Assembly: GCA_964540285.1 (NCBI GenBank)
Contig: CAZILW010000004.1
Span: forward strand, 1 to 47,566
Length of the DNA: 47,566 nucleotides
Reading direction: 5' to 3'
Source of the DNA: an uncultured Gammaproteobacteria bacterium
GTDB lineage: Bacteria; Patescibacteriota; Patescibacteriia; Patescibacteriales; UBA12465
Made by a program: the position numbers and the translations under genes. The number at the start of each line of letters is the position of its first letter. Position 1 is the stretch's first letter. Positions 7,413 through 47,475 of this stretch are shown piece after piece. The notes beneath the pieces were generated by a model that was not told the origin of the DNA, did no database searches, and was given only the letters and a program-made list of their open reading frames with translations.

Positions 7413-8324
7413 ATGTTGTTATCTTTTTTAAGAATATTAAAATTTAGTTTGCAGGATATAAGTAGAAATATTTGGTTGTCGGTGGTCACTGTTACAATCT
7501 TAATTTTATCAATGCTATCTATTAATACTTTGATTTTGCTTAGAGCAATTAGCGATAATGCTGTAGTGGCTATAAAAGAAAAAATAGATTTAAGTCTTTA
7601 TTTAAAGCCAGACTCGCCAGAATCAGAAATTTTAGAACTGAAAAATAGAATAAATTCAATGGAGAGGGTTAGGCTGGTAAAATACACATCAAAACAAGAA
7701 GCCTTGAACTTTTTTAGAGATAAAAATAAAAACAACCCAGAAATATTGCAGGCTATTTTAGAATTAGGTAAAAACCCTCTATCCCCTAGCTTGGTTATTG
7801 TTCCAGAGGACGTTGAAATGATCCCCGATTTAATAGAGGAGCTTAGAGCAATTGATAGTAATATCATAGAATCTAGAGATTTTTCTGACAATAGAATTTT
7901 ACTGGAAAAGATTAATACAATCACCGACAGAATTAGTGATGTTGGTTTTTTTATTATTTTGGTTTTTATTATAACCAGTTTATTGGTTGTTTATAATTCA
8001 ATTAAAGTTGCTGTTTATACTCAAAAAAGAGAAATTGAAATAATGCGTTTGGTGGGAGCTTCAAATTCCTTTATTTATTTGCCGTTTTTATTTTCAGCTG
8101 TAATTTATACTTTAATGGCAACTCTAATAATGATTTCGGTTTCCTTTCCTTTGTTAGGGATTTTGCAACCGTATTTAGAATTGTTTTTTGTTGATTATAA
8201 TATTAATGTTGTTAGTTATTTTGTAGAAAATGTTTGGTTTATTTTTGGCTGGCAGTTTATAGGAATTTCTGTGGTTAATGTTTTAGCCAGTTATTTGGCC
8301 GTCAGTAAATATGCTAAGGTTTAA
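7413..8324 (+). CDS. ftsX: Cell division permease FtsX
   Basis: Four-TM layout with NPL and EIEIMRLVGAS motifs; follows ftsE. Confidence 0.92.
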   Translation: MLLSFLRILKFSLQDISRNIWLSVVTVTILILSMLSINTLILLRAISDNAVVAIKEKIDLSLYLKPDSPESEILELKNRINSMERVRLVKYTSKQEALNFFRDKNKNNPEILQAILELGKNPLSPSLVIVPEDVEMIPDLIEELRAIDSNIIESRDFSDNRILLEKINTITDRISDVGFFIILVFIITSLLVVYNSIKVAVYTQKREIEIMRLVGASNSFIYLPFLFSAVIYTLMATLIMISVSFPLLGILQPYLELFFVDYNINVVSYFVENVWFIFGWQFIGISVVNVLASYLAVSKYAKV

Positions 8325-8380
8325 TTTTGCTTGACTTGTTTTTAATTATTATTTATTATAATTTTGTTAATATAATACAT

Positions 8381-8451
8381 TCGGGGATCGTCTAATGGTA
8401 GGACTCCAGGTTTTGGTCCTGGCTATCGGGGTTCGAATCCCTGTCCCCGAG
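8381..8451 (+). tRNA. tRNA-Gln(TTG)
   Basis: Acceptor TCGGGGA/TCCCCGA, anticodon arm CCAGG-TTTTGGT-CCTGG, T arm CGGGG-TTCGAAT-CCCTG. CCA is not encoded. Confidence 0.95.
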
Positions 8452-8656
8452 CGAAGAAAAAAATACAGCTTATGCTGTATTTTTTGATGAGCGAAGGGGA
8501 AGCGAAGTGCCTGCGCACTTCGCGTCAGGGATGAGAAAGCCGGAGCCATGTGCACGAAGTGCACGGGCGAGGCCAGGCCAGAGCGCTTAGTGAGCGACGA
8601 GCGTTAGCGAGGAAGCGAGACTTAGCGACGCGTGGCCGAATCCCTGTCCCCGAGCA
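8445..8656 (+). repeat. tRNA-linked GC-rich multi-hairpin element, copy 1
   Basis: 8445-8602 is identical to 10206-10363, and 8612-8656 to 10406-10450. It ends with an exact 19-nt copy of the tRNA-Gln 3' end (8637-8655 = 8434-8452). Confidence 0.92.
8458..8485. terminator. Terminator hairpin after tRNA-Gln (repeated at 10219-10246)
   Basis: AAAAAATACAGC-TTAT-GCTGTATTTTTT. Confidence 0.8.
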
Positions 8657-8661
8657 AATCT

Positions 8662-8691
8662 CAAAAACACCTTATTTTACAGGTGTTTTTG
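8662..8691. terminator. Terminator hairpin after the second tRNA 3'-end copy
   Basis: CAAAAACACCT-8nt-AGGTGTTTTTG. Confidence 0.7.
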
Positions 8692-8729
8692 TATATATTT
8701 TGGTTCGAATCCTTGTTTAGTAATATAAT

Positions 8730-9284
8730 ATGTATATGGAAAATAATAAGATTTATACAATTAATGAAATTTTGCAAAAAGCCCAAGATTCTTTTATCTC
8801 AGATTCTGTCAGTTTTTTAAAAAACAGGGATTTTAAAAAAATTAGAGAAGAGGCTATTTATGTTGCTCTTTTTCTAAAAGGACAGCAAAAATATTATTCA
8901 AAAAAATATAAAATAAAATTAAGCGAGAACCCGGACTGCATTGCTATAGATAAAAACAATGAAAAGAATAATATAGGATTTGAGGTGATGGTTATTAATG
9001 AGTATAATTTAGATAATAATGAAATTGGGTTTAGTGTAGCTGATTTTATTTTTAAGAAAAAAGGGCTAAATAATTATGGTAATAATTGTTATTTATTAAT
9101 TCCAATTCTTAAAGAAGGGCAAATTGATATTGACTTAACTGATTTGAAACAAAGTATAATAAAACATAAAATGAAAGGCAGTTTTAATTATAAAGATATA
9201 TTTATTATTTTTTGGAGATCTAAAGGACAACTTCAATGTATTAGTTTATTCAAGGACTTTAATGATTTAAATTATAAAATTTAA
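8730..9284 (+). CDS. Hypothetical protein, possible PD-(D/E)xK-like nuclease fold
   Basis: 184-aa ORF; REE...ENPDCIA...IGFEVM resembles an E...PD...ExK-type active-site arrangement (inference). Confidence 0.7.
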   Translation: MYMENNKIYTINEILQKAQDSFISDSVSFLKNRDFKKIREEAIYVALFLKGQQKYYSKKYKIKLSENPDCIAIDKNNEKNNIGFEVMVINEYNLDNNEIGFSVADFIFKKKGLNNYGNNCYLLIPILKEGQIDIDLTDLKQSIIKHKMKGSFNYKDIFIIFWRSKGQLQCISLFKDFNDLNYKI

Positions 9285-9290
9285 TTGTTT

Positions 9291-9323
9291 TAGTTAGAAC
9301 ATTGTCCACTAACGACCCTGAGC
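9291..9323 (+). repeat. Degenerate att-like junction related to the tRNA-Gln 3' end
   Basis: TAGTTAGAACATTGTCCACTAACGACCCTGAGC aligns with TAGTTCGAACATCGTCCGCGACCCCGAGC at 10185-10213. Confidence 0.7.
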
Positions 9324-9325
9324 AC

Positions 9326-9360
9326 TTGACAAAAAAGTATACTTATAGTATACTTTTTTG
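9326..9360 (+). promoter_or_regulatory. Near-consensus sigma70 promoter overlapped by a perfect 14-bp inverted repeat
   Basis: TTGACA (9326-9331), 17 nt, TATACT (9349-9354); inverted repeat CAAAAAAGTATACT-TAT-AGTATACTTTTTTG (9330-9360). Confidence 0.75.
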
Positions 9361-9401
9361 ATAGTTAAAATTATTGTCGAACCTTAAAAACCTGATATAT
9401 T

Positions 9402-10109
9402 ATGAATAATTTGGACGAAATATTGTATAATTTGGGTCTAGAACAAAAACGGGCAGATGAATTAACCCTCTCGGAAAAGAAAAATATTTTTCAAATGGCA
9501 ATAGATTTTTGTTATGCTTGCCACTTAGAAGATATTGTCGATTTAGTTCCTTTAATAATTCGTAACAACGAACTAAAAAAAGGATTAAAAAGAGCAAGGG
9601 AAAAAGCACCGCATTGCCTTGATTGGCACTTTACAATTGCAAAATTATTCACTGAGCCGCAACGTAGCAAAGAGATGATGTGCATATATAAAAATTCAGT
9701 TCCATATGGGGACCAAGTTGGCTATAGCGCTCTTTATTACAAATTGAAATTTATTGATGAGGTCTCGGAGCCTAATCGCACCGATGAATTAGAAAAATTG
9801 TTGACCGATTTAATAAGAGATTATTGCTCAAAGGTTGACTATTGGGAGGCTGATCCTGAGTGGGATGGAATTTTTCCGCAAAATGGTTGTGAAAAGATTA
9901 TTAACGCTATAGATGCCGAAAAAAGATTAGAAAGTATTAAAAGAATTACTGATAATTTTTTTATCAACGATCTTTTAGATGAGGCGGATAAAGCGGCAAA
10001 TTTTCTTCCTGATTCGGAAAAAAAATGCATGGCGCTAAAGATAAGAGTCAGGAGACCTTTTGTGAAAAGATTTAGATTGCACTACGTAGCAAGAATGATT
10101 GGTTGTTAA
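9402..10109 (+). CDS. Hypothetical (orphan-like) protein
   Basis: 235-aa ORF with its own promoter and downstream hairpin; no recognisable motif. Confidence 0.75.
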   Translation: MNNLDEILYNLGLEQKRADELTLSEKKNIFQMAIDFCYACHLEDIVDLVPLIIRNNELKKGLKRAREKAPHCLDWHFTIAKLFTEPQRSKEMMCIYKNSVPYGDQVGYSALYYKLKFIDEVSEPNRTDELEKLLTDLIRDYCSKVDYWEADPEWDGIFPQNGCEKIINAIDAEKRLESIKRITDNFFINDLLDEADKAANFLPDSEKKCMALKIRVRRPFVKRFRLHYVARMIGC

Positions 10110-10130
10110 AATCATTTTCCAATGTATTTT

Positions 10131-10170
10131 AAAGGCACGCCCGATTAATCGGAAGCGGCCTTTTTTATTT
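10131..10170 (+). terminator. Probable intrinsic terminator
   Basis: AAAGGC-ACGC-CCGAT-TA-ATCGG-AAGCG-GCCTTT followed by a T tract. Confidence 0.55.
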
Positions 10171-10184
10171 ACTTAAAATAATTC

Positions 10185-10213
10185 TAGTTCGAACATCGTC
10201 CGCGACCCCGAGC
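10185..10213 (+). repeat. att-like junction sharing GTTCGAA and CCCCGAGC with the tRNA-Gln 3' end
   Basis: GTTCGAA-12nt-CCCCGAGC here versus GTTCGAA-7nt-CCCCGAGC in the tRNA. Confidence 0.7.
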
Positions 10214-10450
10214 GAAGAAAAAAATACAGCTTATGCTGTATTTTTTGATGAGCGAAGGGGAAGCGAAGTGCCTGCGCACTTCGCGTCAGGGATGAGAAAG
10301 CCGGAGCCATGTGCACGAAGTGCACGGGCGAGGCCAGGCCAGAGCGCTTAGTGAGCGACGAGCAAAGCCACGTGCGAACAAAGTGAGCTATACGTGGCGT
10401 AGTGAGAAGCGAGACTTAGCGACGCGTGGCCGAATCCCTGTCCCCGAGCA
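10206..10450 (+). repeat. tRNA-linked GC-rich multi-hairpin element, copy 2, with a nested 32-nt hairpin
   Basis: Matches copy 1 except at 10364-10405, which carries GCCACGTGCGAACAAAGTGAGCTATACGTGGC. Ends with the tRNA 3'-end copy at 10431-10449. Confidence 0.92.
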
Positions 10451-10451
10451 G

Positions 10452-10493
10452 TGATCTGTACCCCAAAAAGTAGACAAACTTTGTCTACTTTTT
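10452..10493 (+). mobile_element. Possible solitary IS3-family terminal inverted repeat remnant merged with a terminator hairpin
   Basis: TGATCTGTACCCCAAAAAGTAGACA resembles IS3/IS150-group ends (from memory). Hairpin AAAAAGTAGACAAA-C-TTTGTCTACTTTTT. No transposase present. Confidence 0.4.
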
Positions 10494-10613
10494 TTTGTAT
10501 TTAAAATAAAGCATAATAAAATAGACAAAACACCATTTTTTATGTTATTTTTATATATAAACAATTAATATAGTCTATTAAAACATTTATTTAAAACTAT
10601 TTATTTTAAAAAT

Positions 10614-23299: not shown

Positions 23300-23387
23300 T
23301 TTTTATAGCAAGTTGTTTTAAAAGGGAGAGTGGTAAAAATTCTCTCTTTTTTAATTTAATTTTTTTTTTGCTATAATAATTATAGAA

Positions 23388-23619
23388 TAGGATTATTAAG
23401 ACTATTAGGATTTTTAGGATTCCACTTTTTCCCTTTGTCACCCCAGCGAGTCGCGTGCGAGCGAAGTGAGCTATACGCGACGAAAGCTGGGGTCCAGGGT
23501 AGACGCCTAAATACTTTATTAACTAAAATAAACATTATAAATATGATTTAAAAAAATTAATTTAATGTTTTTTTATCCTAATTATCTTAAATCTCTTAAT
23601 TATCCTAAATATCTTTAAA
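23388..23619. repeat. Two inverted arrays of degenerate 9-nt tandem units
   Basis: TAGGATTAT/TAAGACTAT/TAGGATTTT/TAGGATTCC (23388-23423) and ATCCTAATT/ATCTTAAAT/CTCTTAATT/ATCCTAAAT/ATCTTTAAA (23575-23619). Confidence 0.6.
23436..23497 (+). repeat. REP-like palindrome with a nested 32-nt hairpin in its loop
   Basis: TGTC-ACCCCAGC-GA[GTCGCGTGCGAGCGAAGTGAGCTATACGCGAC]GAAA-GCTGGGGT-CCAG. Confidence 0.8.
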
Positions 23620-23651
23620 AAAATATTAACATAATTAATACAAAAAATTAT

Positions 23652-23692
23652 GTCGCGTAAAGACACTCGTTCTTGGCTCGTATCCACGCGAC
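23652..23692 (-). repeat. 41-nt hairpin related to the 32-nt element, opposite strand
   Basis: The reverse complement GTCGCGTG-GATACGAGCCAAGAACGAGTGTCTT-TACGCGAC shares both 8-nt arms with 23450-23481. Confidence 0.7.
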
Positions 23693-23707
23693 TAGATTAT
23701 TAAAGCT

Positions 23708-24937
23708 ATGTTCAATCAAAAAACTGTAAGAATACAAAATCTTGCGTTCAAAAAAGCTTTCACCCTTATCGAATTACTAGTGGTAATAGCCATTATTGGA
23801 ATACTTGCCACATTAGCGGTTGTTGCTTTACAGCAAGCCAGATCTCGAGCTAGAGATTCCAAGAGAATAGCCGATATGAGGCAAATTCAAACTTCTTTAG
23901 AATTATTTTTTAATGAAAATGGAAGATATCCTACTGTCCAAGAATGGAATAGCGGAACCATAACATCTTCTTTGTCTCAAGAAATTTTTATGTACAATAT
24001 CCCCTCTGCCCCTACTCCAGCAGACGGAGACTGCCAACCAGCATCTAATACTTATGTTTACATTCCTCAAAACAATGGTGCCAGTTATACCATAGATTTC
24101 TGTACTGGCAAACAAGTATCAGATCTACCTGAGGGAGTCAAGCAAATGACCCCGGGAGGAATAATTTTTGATAATATTATTTCAGGAGGGGAAGGGGCTG
24201 TCATTTATATTTTAAATTTTGATGCTCAGGGAGGAGATGTTAGTCCAGAAAATAAAACGGTTACTTATACTCAGGAAGTAGGAGTTTTGCCCGTACCAAC
24301 TAGGAGTGGATATATTTTTCAAGGATGGAATTCTCAAGTAGATGGTAGTGGAGAAACTTATACATCAAGCACTGTTTATAGTTTGAATAATAATTTTACT
24401 ATATATGCAATTTGGGAGGGTCCAGTTGGACTGTCTATTGGTGATTATTTTCAAGGTGGTAAGGTAGCTTATATATTGCAAAGTGGAGATGTTGGTTATA
24501 TAAATGACGGTATTCAGAGGGGTTTAATAGTTGAGTTGGGAGAAGACTATGTACAAAAAACTAACATTCCCTGGGGTTGTTCAGGAACTTTAATTGGGAC
24601 TAGCATTGGTTTTGGTTCGGGTCCTTCTAACACAAGCGCTATCGTATCTGCTTGTTCTACGTCTAATATACCAGCTAAAATTTGTAATAACTATGTTAAT
24701 GTCGATACTGGCACAGGTGTTTATAGTGATTGGTATTTGCCTAGCATGAATGAAATCTATAAATTTAGAGATTATAGAGAGGTTTTAAATATTTGGAGTG
24801 GACCAGCTGATCAAAGATATATACACAGCTCTTCGGAGGCTAGTGCTACTGAAATTTGGAGATTTCAAATGAATGGTATTGGTGAAAAAAGGAATAAAAC
24901 TGCCAACTACGAAGTTTGGTGTGTTAGATCGTTTTAA
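23708..24937 (+). CDS. Type IV pilin/pseudopilin-like protein with InlB B-repeat-like and C-terminal DUF1566-like (C-type lectin fold) domains
   Basis: KKA|[17 protein letters not shown] and [20 protein letters not shown]; LNFDAQGG...[15 protein letters not shown]...IYAIW; IGDYFQGG...WYLPSMNE...SSSE...VWCVRSF. Confidence 0.88.
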
Positions 24938-39102: not shown

Positions 39103-42100
39103 ATGACTAACAATAAACCTGCTCAGTCAAAATTCAAAAAGGGCATTTTGCTTTTTTTATTGTTCTCATTCATTTTTAGTTTTTCTTTGTTTCCTCAAAA
39201 GGCCTATGCCTTTTCTGATATAATTGGAGGTCCGGTGGCCGTTATCAGAAAGGTGACTGATTGGGTGGAAAAAAATAAAGATAAGTTTTTAGTTAAGATG
39301 GGTGCTAACATGTTTCAATCTGCTTTAAGATCATCTTTGTTTACATTGGCTTATGATGGAGCTGTTTATTTAGGAACTGGAATAGGCGGTCAAAAGCCAA
39401 CTTGGGAAACTGATTATTGGACAAAATATGGTGATAATATTAGAGATGCTGCTATTGGTGAGGCCCTTGATCTTCTTGGTCAGGAGTGGGATTTTAATTT
39501 TTGCGAACCCAATATAGATATAAAAACAAAAATTGGTTTAGGGTTAACTCATAATTATAGAGAGACTACACCTAGTTGTGGATGGCAACAAATGAAAGCT
39601 GGCTGGAAAAGTGAATTTGACAGATGGGAGTCTTATGCTGAGGATCCTAAAAAGTTTTTAGACCAGGTTGTTGCTTCAATTGATCCAGCTGGTAGCGATA
39701 TTGGAATAACTATGAGTTTATTGGATAAAGTTTTGGAAACAGGAAATAAAGAAAAAGAAAAAGTAGAGACTCAGTTAAAATTTAGTCAGGGTTGGTTAGA
39801 TGTTAGAAGTATAGGTGACAAGCAAAAATCTGTTCCGGGCGCTATTGAAGGAGAGGTTCAGCAAACTAGAGATTTAGCAACCAAAACTTTTGGACAAACA
39901 ACTGGGGATATTTTTGTTGACGCTGTTAACATTTTTTCCAATCAACTTTTGCTATCAACTATAAATTCTCTTTTAAAATCTTATTCTGAAGGTTCTTATA
40001 GTTGGTTTGGCAGGGATTGGGACAGAAACCCTCTTGCGGCACCAGAATTTGATTCTGGAGAGACCGACCCCTCTACTTTTTATACTAAAGCTGGATTATC
40101 AGAAACCTTGAAAAAAGTTTTAACTCCGAAATTTACAGAAAAAACTGATTATAGTATTTTGGCCGAATTAATGATTTGTAATAGTCAAAGTACTTATAGT
40201 GGTCCTAATAATTGTGTTATTAATCAATCATTTGGTAGGGCTATTGAAAATAAAAACACATTAATAGACGCTATTGAAAATGGGTCAATTTCGGCTGGTA
40301 TGTTGTTTTCAGAAAAGGGTAGTTATCAAAACACTTTGAATAGAAGATCTTTAATGATTTTAAGAAAGTTTCGTATAGTTCCTATTGCCTGGGAAGAGGC
40401 TTTAAATAGAATTATTCCTTTACAAGAATCTAACTCTGGTCAGTACACTATTATGGATATGGTTTCTTGTTTTAGTGGGGATGATGAGTATAATCAATTT
40501 AGTAAAAATTTTCCTCATGATCCTAGTAATAATAGTGAAATGGAGTGGTGTCGTGGCTTGGTTGATCCTCACTGGGTTTTAAAAGCCCCTATGAATTATT
40601 GTGCTCGACAGGGTTATGGAGGTCATGTTTTATCAACTCAAACTATCTCTATCCCAGATACAAAAGATTCTGAGGGTAATATTATAAATGCAGGAACTGA
40701 AAATATTTTAATTGTTCGAAGCGATACCTATTGTGCTGATGAAAGGTCTTGTATAAGAGAGGCTGGGGATGGTTCCTGTCAATTTTATGGTTATTGTACA
40801 GAGGAAAAAAGAACTTGGAATTTTAATAGTGATTCTTGTTCCTCTATTTTTAATACTTGCCAATCGTTTACTAGTTCTTCTGGAAAAAAATTAGCTTTAC
40901 TTAAAAACACCATTCAGTATAGTCCTTGTGATGCCAGTAATGCTGGTTGTACGGTTTATTCCACTAACGGTGTTTACAACGAAAACACTTCTAAGGTTTC
41001 TTGGGTAAATAATACTTTTGAGCCAGGCGATAGTTTGATTAATTTGAATAGAAAAGTAGAATCTTGTTCTGCAGCTTCTGAGGGTTGTGACGAGTTTATT
41101 AGAACTAAATCTGGTTTTGGCCATAATTTTATTATTAATGGTAGTTTTGAATCCGATGAAGGTTGGCAGTCTTATTTTAATGATGGTAAAATTCAGAGCA
41201 ATATTGGTTATAATGGAAGTAGGGGGATATTTTTGACTAGTGGAGATACATTGAATGGCTTGACTTCTGTTGGTCCTGATAATAACTTTTTAAAAGGTGA
41301 GACATTTACTTTTTCTTTTTATTCTAAGTGTACTGCCACTTCGACTGCCTTTATAGCTGATATGCCAACAGCCGATCATAGAATAATAGCCCCTTCTACT
41401 GATTTTTCTTATCAAAGTGTTTCTTATACTTATCCTAATAACCATTCAGGGTCAGACGTTGTTTTTAGAATAAACGTTGGTTCAAATTCTCAATGTTATT
41501 TTGATCAATTAAAACTAGAGAAGGGTGCCGTTGGAACTTTTTATTCTGATTATAGAGGTAATGGATTAGTTTATATTAAAACAATCCCAGATTATTTAAA
41601 AAAACAATGCTATGTTGACCCATATTCTAGCACTCCTAATTTCAGTTTAAAATCAAATGCTCCAGCTGCATGTTACCGTTATGCTAGACTTTGTAATTTT
41701 AATGAATTAGGATGTGATTTATTTAAAATGGCTGATGGTAGAAATATTCCAGCCAAAGCTATGGACAAAGATTATTGTCCAGCTGAGTGTGATGGTTATA
41801 ATGTTTATGTTCAAAAATCTACCATATTTGAAAGTGATTCGCCGCACAGACTTATACCAACTACAGCTAAAAAATGTTCAGCAAACAGTGCTGGTTGTAC
41901 AGAGTTTACAAACTTAGAAGACTTATCTAGTGGAGGAGAGAGGGTCGAATATTATTCTTATCTAAGACAATGTATAAAACCAAATGAAGGAACTTGTTCT
42001 AGTTTTTATTCTTGGGAGGGAAATGATGAAAGCGGATATCAATTAAGATCGTTTAATTTGTCGATTAAGAACTCCCAACCCTCTTTAACTGAAGGAAATT

Positions 42101-45100
42101 TATTTTCTGATGGTAATTCTTATAAGCATATAATTGGCGGAGTCGATGTTTGTAGTAGTGAAATAATAAAATTAAACCCCTCTAATCCTAGATACAGTTC
42201 AGATTGTAGAGAAATGTATAATCAGGCAGGTGATATTTTTTATGTTTTGTATTCAAAAACTATAACTTGTTCTGACAAATGTACGCTTTATAGAATGACT
42301 GAAAGAAATATAAACAGAAATATCTCAGGTGTTAATGGCTCTACAGATTGCAACAATTTAAATGCGGGAGGAAAAACGGTAGCTAAGTGGGCAACTGCCA
42401 CAACAGACGATTATACAAATAATGAATCTGTTAGCGGTTTTGTTTGTTTCCATTGTTTAAATGGTGGTGTCTGGGACGAAGGACAGCAAGCTTGTGTTTA
42501 TAAAGCTATTCCTGGCGAGGGAAAATCCTGTTCCTCTTCTGAAAATTATTGTCGTGAATATGGAGGAAATACAGCCAGCAATGTTAGGATTGTTACTTCA
42601 TATGATTTTGAACAAGATGTCTCCGGCTGGCAAGGCGGAGTAAGCTCTGAAACCTCTCTAAGCAACAATGGAAGATCAATGAGAATAAATCCATCATCTG
42701 AATCTAATAGGTCTATTTCCGGATTAGTAAAAGGAAAATCTTATCTGTTAAGTTTCTTGGCTAGAAATCATGGCGAGAATACTGACAGTAGCTCTGATTT
42801 GGAAATTTATTTTATAAATTCAAAAGGTGATATATCTAATTTTAAAACTATAAGTCCTGTAAATGGAGAGAGTATTAATAATATTTCTATAAAAGGCTCT
42901 GCTTGGCAGGTTTACAGAATTTCCTTAGATGAATTAAATCATGATATTGATTCTGGTGAAAAAATTGTTATCAAAAATACTAGCACTAACATTGTTTATG
43001 TTGATGATTTAATTTTATCTGAGTCAGCCAACAGGTATTATTTAATTAAAAACTCTTGGAAAACTCCTAATATTTGTTACTACGATCAAACCTCTAAATA
43101 TCAAGGTTCAAATTATAACTTGGGCTGTTTGGCTTATTTAGATCGAGCTAATAATAAGCATTATTTAAGACAATTTACTAAATTGTGTGACGAATCAGCT
43201 GTGGGTTGTGAATTGATGATTGATACTCACAATTATACCCCAAAAGAAGAGGCGGTTTTCTTATCAGGAGAATTAAATACAGGATTGAATTCATGCTCTT
43301 CTAATCTTGGAGACTGTGTTAAAGTTCCTAAAGATAATTTTTCTTTAGTTGTTTATGATAGTACTAAAATTTGTAATTCAGCTGACAAGGGTTGTTCTCT
43401 TTTAGGAAAGGCAATATCTAATATTTACTCCACCAATATGAATTATACTTATCAGGATATTTATGTTAAAAATAATCCAGATAAATATAATCAAGGAATA
43501 CTTTGTTCCAGAGAGGCGGTGGGTTGTGACGCTTGGTCATCTTCTGCTGGCGACAATTATTTTAAAGATCCAATGGACAATGTCTGTCAGCTCGTAGATA
43601 ATAAATGGTACGCTAAAAAGGTAAAAAGATGCTTGCCTTCAAATATGACTTTTGCAGCTGATAGTGCTCCTATTAGCAGTTTACCTAAAGCTTGTAATAC
43701 CGATTCTGATTGTCCACTTGAGACTGTTTGTAAACTAGATGAAACTAATTATCTTTGCCCAGTTGATTCTGATTTTGAAATAATAAAAACAATTGGTAGT
43801 GACGGCGCTTTGGTTAGCCAACCAAGACCAGAAGCTAACGGGGTTAATTGGACAGGTCTTTGTCCCTTAAAAGAGTCTAGCTGTACGGAATATATAGACC
43901 CAGAAAGTTCTTTTAATCCTAATCTAGTCTCTAATCCTAATTTTGCTGATATTGATGATGATAATCTTTATTTTGATGGTTGGTCTCCAGTTGATTCAAA
44001 TGGTGAAACAGCTTTATCTGGACAACAATGTTCTGTTAATTCTAATGATCAAATATCATGTACTCAAACAGCATCTTCCTACTATTTTAAGCAATCAAAT
44101 TATTTCCTAGAGGCTTACAAACTTTATACTATAAAATATAAAAATTTAAAAAGTTTAAGAATAAAATGTCAAAATCATTTTTATGAGTTAAATTCAGCTA
44201 ATATTTTAAATTTAATTCCTAACTCTTCCTTTTATAGTGTACAGCCACTACCCCAATATCCAGCAATTAATACTTCAAAGTTTGTTTTCTATTCCGCTAA
44301 TAATAATTCCAATGCTTGCGAGCTAGTTATTGAAATAGCTCCTAGTACCAAAATTAATGATATTTCTTTGGAATGGAGAGAACTGATTGTTGATTATAAG
44401 ATAAAAGATAATTTAGATTTTAAATCTTGCAATTTTCCTGAATTTAATCGAGGTTGTATTTTGTTTAACGAAAGGTCAGTCAGGTCAAGTGGATATCCTA
44501 ATTTTGAAACATTAATTTATGATTCAAGTAATTACAGTCAGTATAACCCTTCAAATCAAAACAATTATAAAGATGCTAATAAACTTGTAAAGGTTAGCCC
44601 GGACAGAGTTTGTGGTAAATGGTTGTCTTGTTATTCTTACACTACTGAAAAAGATGAAAAAGGAAATGATAAAAATGTTTGCTTGCAAATTGGACAATGT
44701 ACATCTATGGATGCTAGCGGTAATTGTTTGAATTTTTCTAAGTCAACTCCTGGGAATAGAAGCTTTAATTCAGCCAAAGATGCTAATGTTAGTGGTTATT
44801 CATTGCTTAATCATTATTATTTAGATGCTATGATTCAAAGAGGTAATTCTTCTTTGTTTGATAGTGACTTTGAGGGTCCTGGAGATTTAAATAAATGGAC
44901 AAGAGTGGATGGTGGCAATATTCCGAATGATTGTATTATTTCTAAAAGTTCTGACACTAAAGGAAGTTCTTTTCCTTCAAACACTGATGTTTATCCATCT
45001 CCTTCTAATTTGGGCTTTGTTAGAATAGGCGGTAGCGATAATTGTAATTGGGATTGGAAAACATCTGAGAGTTTAAACACCTCCGTTCAAACAGATTATT

Positions 45101-47475
45101 TTATCAATTTTTTAATAAACACCGCTAATATAACTTACTCTCAGGCAGCCTTTAGCGGGGTAGTTTTAGCCAGAATCATAGGTGTAGATATTAATGGAAA
45201 TGAAATTGAATCAGATGCTAAAAATATTTTGGTAAATGTTAACAATAAAAATTGGCAAAGAGTTAATTTTAAATTTAGAACAGAGTCAACCTGGACTAAA
45301 GGTTCTAAAATAGTTTTTGGACCACCTGCTGGAGAAACTGGATTTGGGGGTTGGATGTATGTTGATGATATTAATGTAGGGCCAGTTTTGGAGGTAGCTG
45401 ATGATAAATATATATCGTCAATTTGTAGGCTCTATCCTAGGCAAGACAGTATTTCTTGTTCAAGTGACACTAGAGGTTATTCTTTTGTGGAGCAAGGCTG
45501 GGAGGGCTATTGTCTAGAAAAAGACCCTCTTAATGAAAATGTTTGTTTATTGTGGTATCCGATAGATGCTATTGTTGGAAGCAGTGCTGATAATTTATCT
45601 TCCAACTTTTCTGGCTTTCCTTTAACTGGAAGTACCCCGCTTTATTGCGCTCAAATGAATGCTAATTTTGACTTGGTAGAATATCGAGACGTGTTTATGG
45701 TTGGTATGGGAATTGGAAAGGAAAAAGGAACTTCTGATAATTATTCTTACAGATATATAGCTACTGGAAGCACTTGTATTAGCTCGGATTATTATTTGGT
45801 TAGAAATAAGAGGACTGATATGGACAATGGTCCTTGTCAAGATACATTTGGCACGGATGTTGGGGCTTATTTGCTTGATGATTATTATTATCATGATATG
45901 TCTTTTTGTATTCCGAAGAAAAATTCTGACACACACCTGCCAATAATTTCTATTAGCAATGGTTTAATGATTTTAGGAAAAGATGTTAAGATTCAGGATC
46001 TTAAGGGAGGGGATAATACTAGGACTATTACTTGTGGCTCTTCCAATAACCCAACTGGTTGTGATGATTGTAATAACCTTTCTTATTATAGTAGTGGTAC
46101 GACAGTAAGAGAGGAGTGGAGATTTTATGCTAAAGCAAATTTTCAATCAGGATATAACTCTGGCGCTGGATGGTATAAATATAATGGAATATTAAGTAAC
46201 AGTAACGCTAAAACAGTTAACAAAGAACATGAAATCGGTCTTAGATTATTAGCCTATGGCATGACTCAAGTAGAGTGTGAAACTAGTGGTATCTATGATT
46301 ATAGCGAAGGCAGTACAAGTATCCCCGCTAAATATTTTCATCCAGGGAATGGAAATGATCAGTGCCCATTAGATAAATGTAATGACGGAAAAGGTGCTTG
46401 TTTAATGCACCCCGATAAATACGTCCCAAAATGTAATTTTATCGTTAAAGGAGATGTTCCTTGGGTGTCTAGGTTGAAATCATCCCCATATTCTTTTAAG
46501 GAATATCAATCTTCTTTACCAAACTATTTGAATTATTATAGTCTATCTTCAAAAAATACTCCTTTTGGTGCCATAAACTCACCGACAATGCCGGCGTATG
46601 ATGTTTATGTTAATCAAGTAAATACAAACCCACAAAGTCCATACTATTATCATGGACTACCCTTGTCTTGTACTGGTACAGGAACTGTTTATATGAATGG
46701 TAGCTGGCGAAATCCTTGCGAAGCATTGAGGTATGATAGTGATGGTAAAATTAAACTTACTCTAAACACTTCTGATTCTAATAGATTTTCCAGTTCTGCT
46801 AATCTTAATATTGCTAGAGACTCTTTAAAATATGTATTCGCAAAAATTTCCTCAAACTCTGGTTTTAACTATGACCACACTCTTAAAGGCTCAACCCCAG
46901 CTTCTGTTTGTAATACGGCCGGTTGCCCTCCAAGGGAGAGTGATATAAATATCTGTTCTGTTTATCCTCAAATTGAAAATGTTAAAATGAGTGGTCCAAG
47001 TGGTCAAATAAATCAAATGGTTCGTGAAGATGGAATTCCTTCCAATATTTATAATATAGTTTCTGGAGGTTTTTATACTTTATCTTTCAATACTTTTGTA
47101 GATAGTGAGCAAGCGCCGATAAAGAAATTATTCATTAAGATTAAAAGAGTTGATGATTCCTGGGAACAAGTTCCTAATATAGTATTAAGCAATATTGACC
47201 ATCGTCCAGACTCATTAAACCCACATCGTCTGGTTAAATTTTTATCACCAGGTCAATATATAGTATTAATTAAAGTAATTGATAATTGGGACTTCTTTAA
47301 ATGTTATGGTATGGGTGCTTTTGCGAATACTAATAGTAGTTGTTATAGATATTGCTGTGGAGCTCTTATTGATGGCAACCCTGCTTATCTCGAAAACCCT
47401 TTTTCAGAAGCTTGCGGGGTAGATGATCGCTGTACAGAGAATAATATAAGGGGTGTTTTGCCGGTCTGTAATTAA
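39103..47475 (+). CDS. Giant (2790 aa) Cys-rich exported protein with about four carbohydrate-binding-module-like domains
   Basis: Signal peptide ending AYA; about 98 Cys by manual count; repeated C-x6-C motifs; CBM-like segments NFIINGSFE...FDQLKL, YDFE...VDDLIL, NLVSNPNF and DFEG...VDDINV. Confidence 0.9.
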   Translation: MTNNKPAQSKFKKGILLFLLFSFIFSFSLFPQKAYAFSDIIGGPVAVIRKVTDWVEKNKDKFLVKMGANMFQSALRSSLFTLAYDGAVYLGTGIGGQKPTWETDYWTKYGDNIRDAAIGEALDLLGQEWDFNFCEPNIDIKTKIGLGLTHNYRETTPSCGWQQMKAGWKSEFDRWESYAEDPKKFLDQVVASIDPAGSDIGITMSLLDKVLETGNKEKEKVETQLKFSQGWLDVRSIGDKQKSVPGAIEGEVQQTRDLATKTFGQTTGDIFVDAVNIFSNQLLLSTINSLLKSYSEGSYSWFGRDWDRNPLAAPEFDSGETDPSTFYTKAGLSETLKKVLTPKFTEKTDYSILAELMICNSQSTYSGPNNCVINQSFGRAIENKNTLIDAIENGSISAGMLFSEKGSYQNTLNRRSLMILRKFRIVPIAWEEALNRIIPLQESNSGQYTIMDMVSCFSGDDEYNQFSKNFPHDPSNNSEMEWCRGLVDPHWVLKAPMNYCARQGYGGHVLSTQTISIPDTKDSEGNIINAGTENILIVRSDTYCADERSCIREAGDGSCQFYGYCTEEKRTWNFNSDSCSSIFNTCQSFTSSSGKKLALLKNTIQYSPCDASNAGCTVYSTNGVYNENTSKVSWVNNTFEPGDSLINLNRKVESCSAASEGCDEFIRTKSGFGHNFIINGSFESDEGWQSYFNDGKIQSNIGYNGSRGIFLTSGDTLNGLTSVGPDNNFLKGETFTFSFYSKCTATSTAFIADMPTADHRIIAPSTDFSYQSVSYTYPNNHSGSDVVFRINVGSNSQCYFDQLKLEKGAVGTFYSDYRGNGLVYIKTIPDYLKKQCYVDPYSSTPNFSLKSNAPAACYRYARLCNFNELGCDLFKMADGRNIPAKAMDKDYCPAECDGYNVYVQKSTIFESDSPHRLIPTTAKKCSANSAGCTEFTNLEDLSSGGERVEYYSYLRQCIKPNEGTCSSFYSWEGNDESGYQLRSFNLSIKNSQPSLTEGNLFSDGNSYKHIIGGVDVCSSEIIKLNPSNPRYSSDCREMYNQAGDIFYVLYSKTITCSDKCTLYRMTERNINRNISGVNGSTDCNNLNAGGKTVAKWATATTDDYTNNESVSGFVCFHCLNGGVWDEGQQACVYKAIPGEGKSCSSSENYCREYGGNTASNVRIVTSYDFEQDVSGWQGGVSSETSLSNNGRSMRINPSSESNRSISGLVKGKSYLLSFLARNHGENTDSSSDLEIYFINSKGDISNFKTISPVNGESINNISIKGSAWQVYRISLDELNHDIDSGEKIVIKNTSTNIVYVDDLILSESANRYYLIKNSWKTPNICYYDQTSKYQGSNYNLGCLAYLDRANNKHYLRQFTKLCDESAVGCELMIDTHNYTPKEEAVFLSGELNTGLNSCSSNLGDCVKVPKDNFSLVVYDSTKICNSADKGCSLLGKAISNIYSTNMNYTYQDIYVKNNPDKYNQGILCSREAVGCDAWSSSAGDNYFKDPMDNVCQLVDNKWYAKKVKRCLPSNMTFAADSAPISSLPKACNTDSDCPLETVCKLDETNYLCPVDSDFEIIKTIGSDGALVSQPRPEANGVNWTGLCPLKESSCTEYIDPESSFNPNLVSNPNFADIDDDNLYFDGWSPVDSNGETALSGQQCSVNSNDQISCTQTASSYYFKQSNYFLEAYKLYTIKYKNLKSLRIKCQNHFYELNSANILNLIPNSSFYSVQPLPQYPAINTSKFVFYSANNNSNACELVIEIAPSTKINDISLEWRELIVDYKIKDNLDFKSCNFPEFNRGCILFNERSVRSSGYPNFETLIYDSSNYSQYNPSNQNNYKDANKLVKVSPDRVCGKWLSCYSYTTEKDEKGNDKNVCLQIGQCTSMDASGNCLNFSKSTPGNRSFNSAKDANVSGYSLLNHYYLDAMIQRGNSSLFDSDFEGPGDLNKWTRVDGGNIPNDCIISKSSDTKGSSFPSNTDVYPSPSNLGFVRIGGSDNCNWDWKTSESLNTSVQTDYFINFLINTANITYSQAAFSGVVLARIIGVDINGNEIESDAKNILVNVNNKNWQRVNFKFRTESTWTKGSKIVFGPPAGETGFGGWMYVDDINVGPVLEVADDKYISSICRLYPRQDSISCSSDTRGYSFVEQGWEGYCLEKDPLNENVCLLWYPIDAIVGSSADNLSSNFSGFPLTGSTPLYCAQMNANFDLVEYRDVFMVGMGIGKEKGTSDNYSYRYIATGSTCISSDYYLVRNKRTDMDNGPCQDTFGTDVGAYLLDDYYYHDMSFCIPKKNSDTHLPIISISNGLMILGKDVKIQDLKGGDNTRTITCGSSNNPTGCDDCNNLSYYSSGTTVREEWRFYAKANFQSGYNSGAGWYKYNGILSNSNAKTVNKEHEIGLRLLAYGMTQVECETSGIYDYSEGSTSIPAKYFHPGNGNDQCPLDKCNDGKGACLMHPDKYVPKCNFIVKGDVPWVSRLKSSPYSFKEYQSSLPNYLNYYSLSSKNTPFGAINSPTMPAYDVYVNQVNTNPQSPYYYHGLPLSCTGTGTVYMNGSWRNPCEALRYDSDGKIKLTLNTSDSNRFSSSANLNIARDSLKYVFAKISSNSGFNYDHTLKGSTPASVCNTAGCPPRESDINICSVYPQIENVKMSGPSGQINQMVREDGIPSNIYNIVSGGFYTLSFNTFVDSEQAPIKKLFIKIKRVDDSWEQVPNIVLSNIDHRPDSLNPHRLVKFLSPGQYIVLIKVIDNWDFFKCYGMGAFANTNSSCYRYCCGALIDGNPAYLENPFSEACGVDDRCTENNIRGVLPVCN

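Follow-up and report, generated by a model that had tools for sequence, protein, structure and literature searches.

The 32-nt hairpin that occurs twice in the analysed window, a stretch of 47,566 nt, belongs to a family of structure-conserved bulged hairpins. Judged from sequence, the enzyme class linked to such hairpins in related genomes is that of the small GIY-YIG nucleases, not the HUH enzymes. On balance, we lean towards reading the unit as an orphan hairpin module from a repertoire of small single-domain GIY-YIG nucleases, made up of Ssn-like enzymes and a second mini clade. Small nucleases of this kind are common in Patescibacteria. The copies in the genome studied here, in which no nuclease gene of either kind is assembled, are probably inert relics, and they still mark sites where insertion and recombination are likely.

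The window is contig C4 of an 826-kb Patescibacteria genome (G000; ~30% GC, 26 contigs, 94.5% complete); relatives are labelled G008, G010, and G019, and individual loci are given L numbers. By family assignment, the genes of the window include FtsX, MurJ, ABC ATPases, and a pilin-like protein, a set that helps to place the DNA among the Patescibacteria, and an ORF of 2790 aa lies at 39103-47475. A GC-island scan of this AT-rich genome placed both 32-nt hairpins within short GC-rich intergenic islands. These islands are members of repeat families, and contigs break inside such families at the starts of C1 and C3, at both ends of C6 and C18, and at the ends of C11 and C23. The end of C6, with tRNA-Gln(CUG) and an element start, and the start of C1, with an element end, are apparently one locus (compare the metagenome loci L143-L145). 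Twenty sequencing-run rows contained the 8-12 kb stretch, and no RNA data set was among those listed. The strain is present in many metagenomes from sludge, landfills, and digesters.

Structure and covariation of the hairpin family

The two copies lie at 10367-10398 and 23450-23481, both on the forward strand, and match at 26 of 32 positions, with differences at positions 2, 4, 12, 14, 29, and 31. The first has arms GCCACGT/ACGTGGC and an inner stem GCGAAC-AAA-GTGAGC, and the second has arms GTCGCGT/ACGCGAC and an inner stem GCGAGC-GAA-GTGAGC; the bulge is TAT in both. As the sequence-only reading of this DNA had pointed out, the differences at 2/31 (C-G versus T-A) and 4/29 (A-T versus G-C) are compensatory. 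The change at position 12 turns an inner-stem A-T pair into G.T and that at position 14 falls in the loop, and the fold is kept by all six differences. An 18-nt core pattern with up to 3 mismatches occurred twice in the window compared to a mean of 0.05 in shuffles, and none of 100 shuffles reached two matches. Folded as single-stranded DNA, the two units had energies of −6.7 and −8.3 kcal/mol (z −2.7 and −1.9), and the 62-nt composite at 23436-23497, which comprises the second unit and its host palindrome, had −17.6 kcal/mol (z −4.6) when folded as DNA.

To describe the family, we aligned 21 copies, 20 of them distinct, from G000, its relatives, and other phyla. Copies were collected with a filter for at least five outer-stem pairs, and the inner helix was not filtered for pairing; two filter matches (L063 and L089) were dropped as chance, and two copies (L021 and L031) were added by hand. 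In the shared design, the outer stem is GC-rich and 7 bp long, the inner stem has a tandem G.A between two 2-bp segments and ends in a GAA or AAA loop, and three unpaired nucleotides, T(A/T)T, stand just before the 3' arm. The outer stem follows the consensus G(Y)C(R)CGT/ACG(Y)G(R)C, and the inner stem-loop is variable. A K-turn was considered for the G.A motifs and dropped on inspection, as the order of stem, bulge, and G.A pairs is reversed.

The claim that the unit is conserved in structure was borne out, with arms that covary in many further copies. Stem cells were paired in 94.1% of cases compared to 85.6% in shuffles, a level that none of 500 shuffles reached, and 26 double-change cells were observed where 9.7 were expected; the outer-helix share of these statistics is inflated because the copy filter demanded at least five outer pairs. 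Alignment pair 2-32 was UA in 10 copies and CG in 8, pair 4-30 was GC in 14 and AU in 4, and the inner pair 13-19 was GC in 12, AU in 7, and GU in 1. Pairing was kept in all four combinations of stem positions 2 and 4.

The genome-wide search proposed along with the hairpin recovered more copies, in contigs C3, C10, C12, C14, C18, and C19. Under a strict census pattern (NNNNCGT ... T[AT]T ACGNNNN, all seven pairs required), G000 held 10 copies of the arm class, where 20 shuffles averaged 1.95 and never exceeded 5, and such copy numbers are lower bounds because several of the GC-rich repeat islands lie at contig ends. We used a working class, bulged hairpins of mini GIY-YIG cassettes, defined by an inner hairpin on a GC-rich stem of 6 bp or longer and by T(A/T)T directly before the 3' arm; both window copies and eight more copies in G000 have this shape.

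A degenerate-core scan of species-representative genomes gave 15 loci. They came from several Patescibacteria, one Opitutaceae MAG, a doubtful Nitrospirota site, two MAGs labelled Gammaproteobacteria, and seven Streptococcus records at one common locus; L051, one of the two MAGs with the Gammaproteobacteria label, has a Patescibacteria-type sequence of the tRNA-linked family A described below. The records of Streptococcus oralis and related organisms (L043, L044, L047, L048, L050, and L054) share one conserved intergenic locus, with the same inner 15-mer and a TTT bulge within different arms (ACTAGT/ACTAG), and no GIY-YIG gene was found within ~170 kb of the S. oralis copies, the distance at which the nearest match lies. 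No match to the core pattern was found among viral contigs.

Hosts of the nested unit

SsnA is a 94-aa GIY-YIG protein which, according to the accessible text of its description, cuts single-stranded DNA beside an NTS hairpin (Chenal et al., Nat Commun 2025, PMC11893778). By the same account, SsnA acts on neither the reverse strand nor duplex DNA nor RNA, and it still cleaves when the NTS loop, which is dispensable, has been taken out or lengthened. Ssn nucleases are assigned to CDD family cd10448. The Ssn-related motif (SRM) is given there as HGTCWYN(0-2)YYVSBRHN(0-5)WNVSBRGN(0-2)RNCYNB (PMC11893778).

The 23450 copy is nested in the loop of a palindrome, TGTCACCCCAGCGA and GAAAGCTGGGGTCCAG on either side of the 32 nt (23436-23497, forward strand). 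This host resembles the NTS consensus and matches the SRM pattern when loops of up to 60 nt are allowed, which by its sequence makes it a probable SRM or NTS-like motif (Chenal et al. 2025) with a filled loop. It is the sole match to the loop-extended pattern in the window, and no SRM match starts at 10367 or 23450, the first positions of the 32-nt units themselves. With the strict loop of 0-5 nt, three sites were found in G000, among them an empty copy at C23:8178, and the window copy needs the longer loop; the loop-extended pattern had 14 matches in G000, where 20 shuffles averaged 4.0 and never exceeded 9. In the genus, the palindrome had 15 matches in 3 of 21 genomes, and the reversed-pattern control had none.

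Tabulating filled and empty sites across the 21 same-genus genomes, as had been suggested, showed that SRM loops occur empty, half-filled, and filled: a plain GAAA, GA followed by GYCACGT-TTT-ACGTGGC (5 matches), or the full unit of ~32 nt (8 matches). The arms differ between half-filled loops (GCCACGT) and filled loops (GTCGCGT), and both kinds of arm occupy one and the same position in the loop. An empty orthologue of the 23450 site was also sought, and none was informative; G008, the only relative with the locus, is filled identically, and the 48-mer at 23443-23490 is identical in that genome. Pilin-like genes have, upstream of their SRM and promoter region, AT-rich arrays whose units resemble TAGGATTATTAAGACTAT (window 23385-23425), and inverse arrays (ATCCTAATTATCTTAA...) lie downstream of that region (23575-23615). 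Arrays of these types were also seen at C1:69480-69600, C12:10670-10730, C18, and C20:12100-12200 of G000, and they could be candidate binding or recombination sites.

The palindrome is part of a pilin island between murJ and lepA. The murJ-lepA locus was matched in 19 relatives, of which 18 were read (L104 was left out), and murJ is directly followed by lepA in 17 of these 18. Only G000 and G008 have the island (window 23300-24937 compared with G008:C43, L088). Its non-coding part is ~96% identical between the two genomes compared to 86% for murJ, suggesting that the island was recently transferred. The arm class has a third member here, GTCGCGT...TTT ACGCGAC on the reverse strand at 23652-23692, which differs in its inner part and is located after the promoter region and before the start codon of the pilin gene (23708). 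It is absent from that site in G008, which has a sister copy in a 59-nt indel upstream. The islands differ by two indels, of which G008 has the one of 59 nt and G000 the one of 64 nt (23652-23692 plus 25 nt). Both carry a hairpin armed with GTCGCGT/ACGCGAC, with different interiors, and both are larger than the bare hairpin, with edges that are not simple. Hairpin-bearing indels between near-identical islands indicate that units of this arm class were recently gained or lost.

The 10367 copy lies at the arm tip of a different kind of host, a tRNA-linked element. Family A elements are ~200 nt long and GC-rich, lie behind several different tRNAs of G000, each ending in that tRNA's own 3' end, and are present in 13 of 41 related genomes, G000 counted. 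In the window, tRNA-Gln(UUG) (8381-8452, forward strand) has its 3' end repeated at 8638-8655 and 10432-10449. Copy 1 of family A (8453-8656, forward strand) is directly behind this tRNA and its terminator, and its arm tip CGAGCGTTAGCGAGG (8598-8612) is without the 32-nt unit. Copy 2 (10199-10450, forward strand) is a GC-rich structured element that ends with an 18-nt copy of the tRNA-Gln 3' end, GAATCCCTGTCCCCGAGC. The two copies bracket the ORFs 8730-9284 and 9402-10109, for which no Pfam or NCBIfam family and no hint of a recombinase was found, and the layout of 8381-10450 looks like a cassette array at a tRNA 3' end. A further T-arm-like remnant, TTGGTTCGAATCCTTG, is located at 8696-8716.

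The 5' strand of the long stem of family A (8525-8531 and 10286-10292; loci L004-L016) is a perfect complement of the 3' strand of the tRNA T-stem, reading CAGGG for tRNA-Gln(UUG) and CTAGG for tRNA-Gln(CUG). The tRNA's own T-stem 5' strand differs and has a G.U pair (CGGGG and CTGGG, respectively), so the element mirrors the 3' end and is not a tRNA copy. On one metagenome contig, two family A copies (L143 and L144) are identical except that one has 19 nt inserted at another arm tip. The insert begins with five bases that complement the sequence just 3' of it, which creates a new stem. By its sequence, this insert has the signature expected of template switching.

The presence of the unit in copy 2 and its absence from copy 1 were confirmed, but the difference is not a clean indel because the following 10 nt differ too. 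Where copy 1 reads CGAGC-GTTA-GCGAGG, copy 2 has AAA, the 32 nt, and GTA; in the 10 nt 3' of the hairpin one T is missing, a C is replaced by T, and one G is missing. The arm tip thus amounts to a replacement of 10 nt by 43 nt with three further changes, between flanks that are 98% identical over 165 nt and 100% identical over 45 nt. The same filled arm, GAGC-(A/G)AA-[hairpin], was also found in family A of G008 (L045/L015) and of another MAG (L051) and is therefore an old allele, and that of copy 2 was probably moved by recombination between copies rather than by fresh insertion. When metagenomes were scanned for the 20 nt that lie left of the arm tip, four loci were recovered, all with the GTTA arm and none with the 32-nt unit.

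The sequence-only reading had seen two unrelated host hairpins and a mobile unit entering their loops. The first of these hosts stands as the palindrome around 23450, but at 10367 the host is only a weak tandem-G.A stem that is absent from the DNA fold. As for mobility, the unit is nested in at least three types of host, namely the SRM loop, the arm tip of the tRNA-linked element, and, in C10, a reverse-oriented hairpin of its own class, but no clean insertion of the 32-nt unit was found. An extended form of this idea appears to us unlikely: that the hairpin of ~32-34 nt (with a 5' GA) is itself mobile and would rank with the smallest mobile units known, is moved in trans by a mini GIY-YIG enzyme acting on single-stranded DNA, preferentially into the 5' edges of loops of other hairpins, and by repeated nesting in itself built the ~200-nt tRNA-mirroring elements of Patescibacteria, which follow tRNA genes and set variable gene cassettes apart.

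We regard it as equally doubtful that the nesting arose without any mobile unit, by template-switch (snap-back) copying in replication or repair, with patchy gene conversion spreading the arm variants. Such copying would fit the 10-nt versus 43-nt replacement with its three extra changes between flanks of 98-100% identity, the same filled arm in family A of other genomes (L045/G008 and L051), the L143/L144 insert, and a family A 5' strand (CAGGG, CTAGG) that complements the 3' strand of the tRNA instead of copying its 5' strand. However, local copying does not explain near-identical 32-nt units in unrelated hosts and phyla with different flanks, and the arm lineages GCCACGT and GTCGCGT at exactly one position of the SRM loop also argue against it.

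Somewhat less probable still is a functional RNA module, serving as the variable arm of a tRNA-like family A RNA and as a pilin leader and kept by selection on folding or protein binding. The RNA folds of the two family A copies (z −5.5 and −6.4), the covariation across relatives between the 5' part of family A and its tRNA-like 3' end, and the tandem G.A, the GAA/GAAA loops, and the A-U to G.U change of the hairpin would suit this role. Yet the Rfam 15 covariance models matched only two tRNAs in the window and nothing over the elements in 8300-10600 at E ≤ 10, the arm tip that houses the 32-nt unit is hypervariable among tRNA-Gln orthologues, the module is found in either orientation and in many unrelated settings, its sister hairpins surround terminators or sit upstream of promoters, and SsnA is reported, in the accessible text, to be inactive on RNA (PMC11893778).

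Nuclease genes in relatives and in G000

The reading that we prefer, an orphan module from a GIY-YIG nuclease repertoire, draws on the genes found beside such hairpins in other genomes. In the same-genus genomes G008 (L080), G010 (L076), and G019 (L078), a small GIY-YIG ORF lies between an SRM and an inverted SRM. These ORFs matched PF01541 with E-values from 4e-13 to 7e-16 and had no NCBIfam family or solved-structure match. Several of the SRM-like palindromes beside them hold nested hairpins of the GYCRCGT class. The Ssn-like gene of L076 (G010:C2:76922-77149) has a frameshift in a run of A's, which may mark a pseudogene or stem from an assembly error.

A second mini GIY-YIG clade, searched with an 86-aa query from L077, was found in 123 of 301 genomes of the order, often in multiple copies and sometimes with internal stop codons, and it matches TIGR01453 ("group I intron endonuclease") weakly. 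It had no copy in G000 and occurred in 11 of the 132 genomes of its own family. Among the best 12 of 30 homologue loci of this clade, a forward bulged hairpin lay upstream of the gene, wholly within 150 nt in 8 loci and within 300 nt in 10, compared with a background of 0.7 such hairpins per kb. Further upstream, 9 of the same 12 loci had a reverse-oriented hairpin, usually at a tRNA end and often enclosing its terminator. In that arrangement the outer stem cannot form in RNA, which points to a role at the DNA level. Two of the 18 more distant homologues passed the hairpin filter.

The hairpin type of the window itself was seen next to a GIY-YIG gene in only two loci. In L118 the order is tRNA-Gln, hairpin, TCACGT-G-GCGAACGAAGTGAGC-TTT-ACGTGG, promoter, and GIY-YIG ORF; the ORF ends inside AAGCGAGACTTAGCGAC, which also lies 3' of the hairpin in copy 2 of the window and is followed in L118 by a copy of the tRNA-Gln 3' end. 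In L146 the ORF is directly followed by ACCGCGT-GCGAGCGAAGCGAGT-TAT-ACGCGG, which abuts tRNA-Lys. Family A as a GIY-YIG cassette minus its gene was considered and kept as a hint only, with the right-end motif AAGCGAGACTTAGCGAC found directly 3' of the ORF in 2 of 30 cassette loci. In four of five other copy-bearing genomes, no GIY-YIG gene was found on the contig taken, by its number, to hold the copy.

Corresponding genes were sought in G000. A tblastn search for mini GIY-YIG genes with four in-frame queries gave a best E-value of 0.27, and PF01541 matched nothing beyond one frame of 390 aa and two small ORFs. These small GIY-YIG ORFs, at C7:4309 and C7:41201, were rejected as partners, being weak matches with AT-rich flanks that lack hairpins. 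Neither the layout of a small single-domain GIY-YIG gene between two SRMs nor a mini GIY-YIG gene with a bulged hairpin in its vicinity (up to a few hundred nt) was found in this genome, where one tyrosine recombinase was detected (C1:14989).

The HUH enzyme of the RAYT or IS200 type that had been proposed as the agent of spread did not turn up: PF01797 (Y1_Tnp) had no match in the 94.5% complete G000, and the same search was positive in 6 of 14 control genomes. TnpB had no match in G000 either, and neither component of an IS200/IS605 type, TnpA(Y1) or TnpB, was found. A REP-like unit moved on single-stranded DNA by such a tyrosine transposase shares with our hairpins a general REP/REPIN likeness, with short GC-rich bulged hairpins and, in relatives, inverted pairs upstream of a gene, but with these searches empty, the hairpin-adjoining genes of relatives being GIY-YIG, and copy number as low as the 10 strict copies in G000, this model is very improbable and, for G000, close to refuted.

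Proposed mechanism and known systems

If the hairpins are modules of GIY-YIG nucleases, they would be strand-specific at the DNA level and extrude in single-stranded DNA, where a cognate nuclease, perhaps supplied in trans, would bind the hairpin and cut nearby. We infer this binding and cutting by analogy, as both have been shown for SsnA and the NTS hairpin. Hairpins may have spread alongside nuclease cassettes or trailed behind them, by way of the repair or recombination that follows a cut. A host loop would accept an added hairpin without loss of recognition of the host stem, and such tolerance of additions would explain how modules came to pile up inside each other, a putative route of nesting.

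Should the pairing of nuclease and hairpin hold, these would be a second enzyme and repeat pair with a new specificity for single-stranded DNA, and a model for how GC-rich structured "junk" accretes in AT-rich, streamlined genomes. The window alone gives a more modest result, namely gene-less copies that are probably relics.

REP and REPIN sequences are GC-rich hairpins of small size that lie outside genes; some form inverted pairs, most are orphans, and the RAYT gene is flanked by the same repeats. The hairpins described here are alike in all these respects, including an enzyme gene flanked by repeats, but differ in having a GIY-YIG instead of an HUH/Y1 enzyme, far fewer copies, and regular nesting in each other's loops. 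The small dispersed repeats (SDR) of heterocystous cyanobacteria, which Elhai et al. 2008 are said to have described, are reportedly ~20-30 nt long, insert into one another, and have no transposase of their own. By that description, they share very small size and mutual insertion with our unit, but belong to another host phylum, and for our unit a candidate partner enzyme class is visible in relatives of G000.

SegB of phage T4 is, according to the accessible text of its description, a GIY-YIG homing endonuclease that is free-standing and is encoded within a cluster of tRNA genes (PMC2330249). The likeness is that in both cases a small GIY-YIG gene lies among tRNA genes and may spread by cutting cassette-free alleles. 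The accessible text also marks the difference, in that SegB has a DNA-binding part and cuts double-stranded DNA, and no hairpin repeats are described there for it.

The nearest known system is Ssn/SRM. Our literature search found the Ssn paper and no description of these Patescibacteria hairpins or cassettes, and in the accessible text of that paper neither Patescibacteria nor tRNA occurs (PMC11893778). Site-specific nucleases for single-stranded DNA with cognate hairpin repeats were first described in 2025. The relatives of G000 resemble that system in their hairpin-gene-hairpin layout around a single-domain GIY-YIG gene of ~100 aa, with hairpins that are oriented and asymmetric, and the host palindrome at 23436-23497 fits the SRM pattern when a longer loop is allowed. 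The 32-nt unit, in contrast, is off the SRM pattern, with a T-rich bulge and a second stem. It is linked to the other mini GIY-YIG clade, with its weak TIGR01453 match, and is nested in SRM loops and tRNA-linked elements, in a genome without such a gene. Ssn and its SRM were known, and what we did not find in the literature is the second hairpin design, its mini GIY-YIG clade, and its nesting in SRM loops and tRNA-linked modules.
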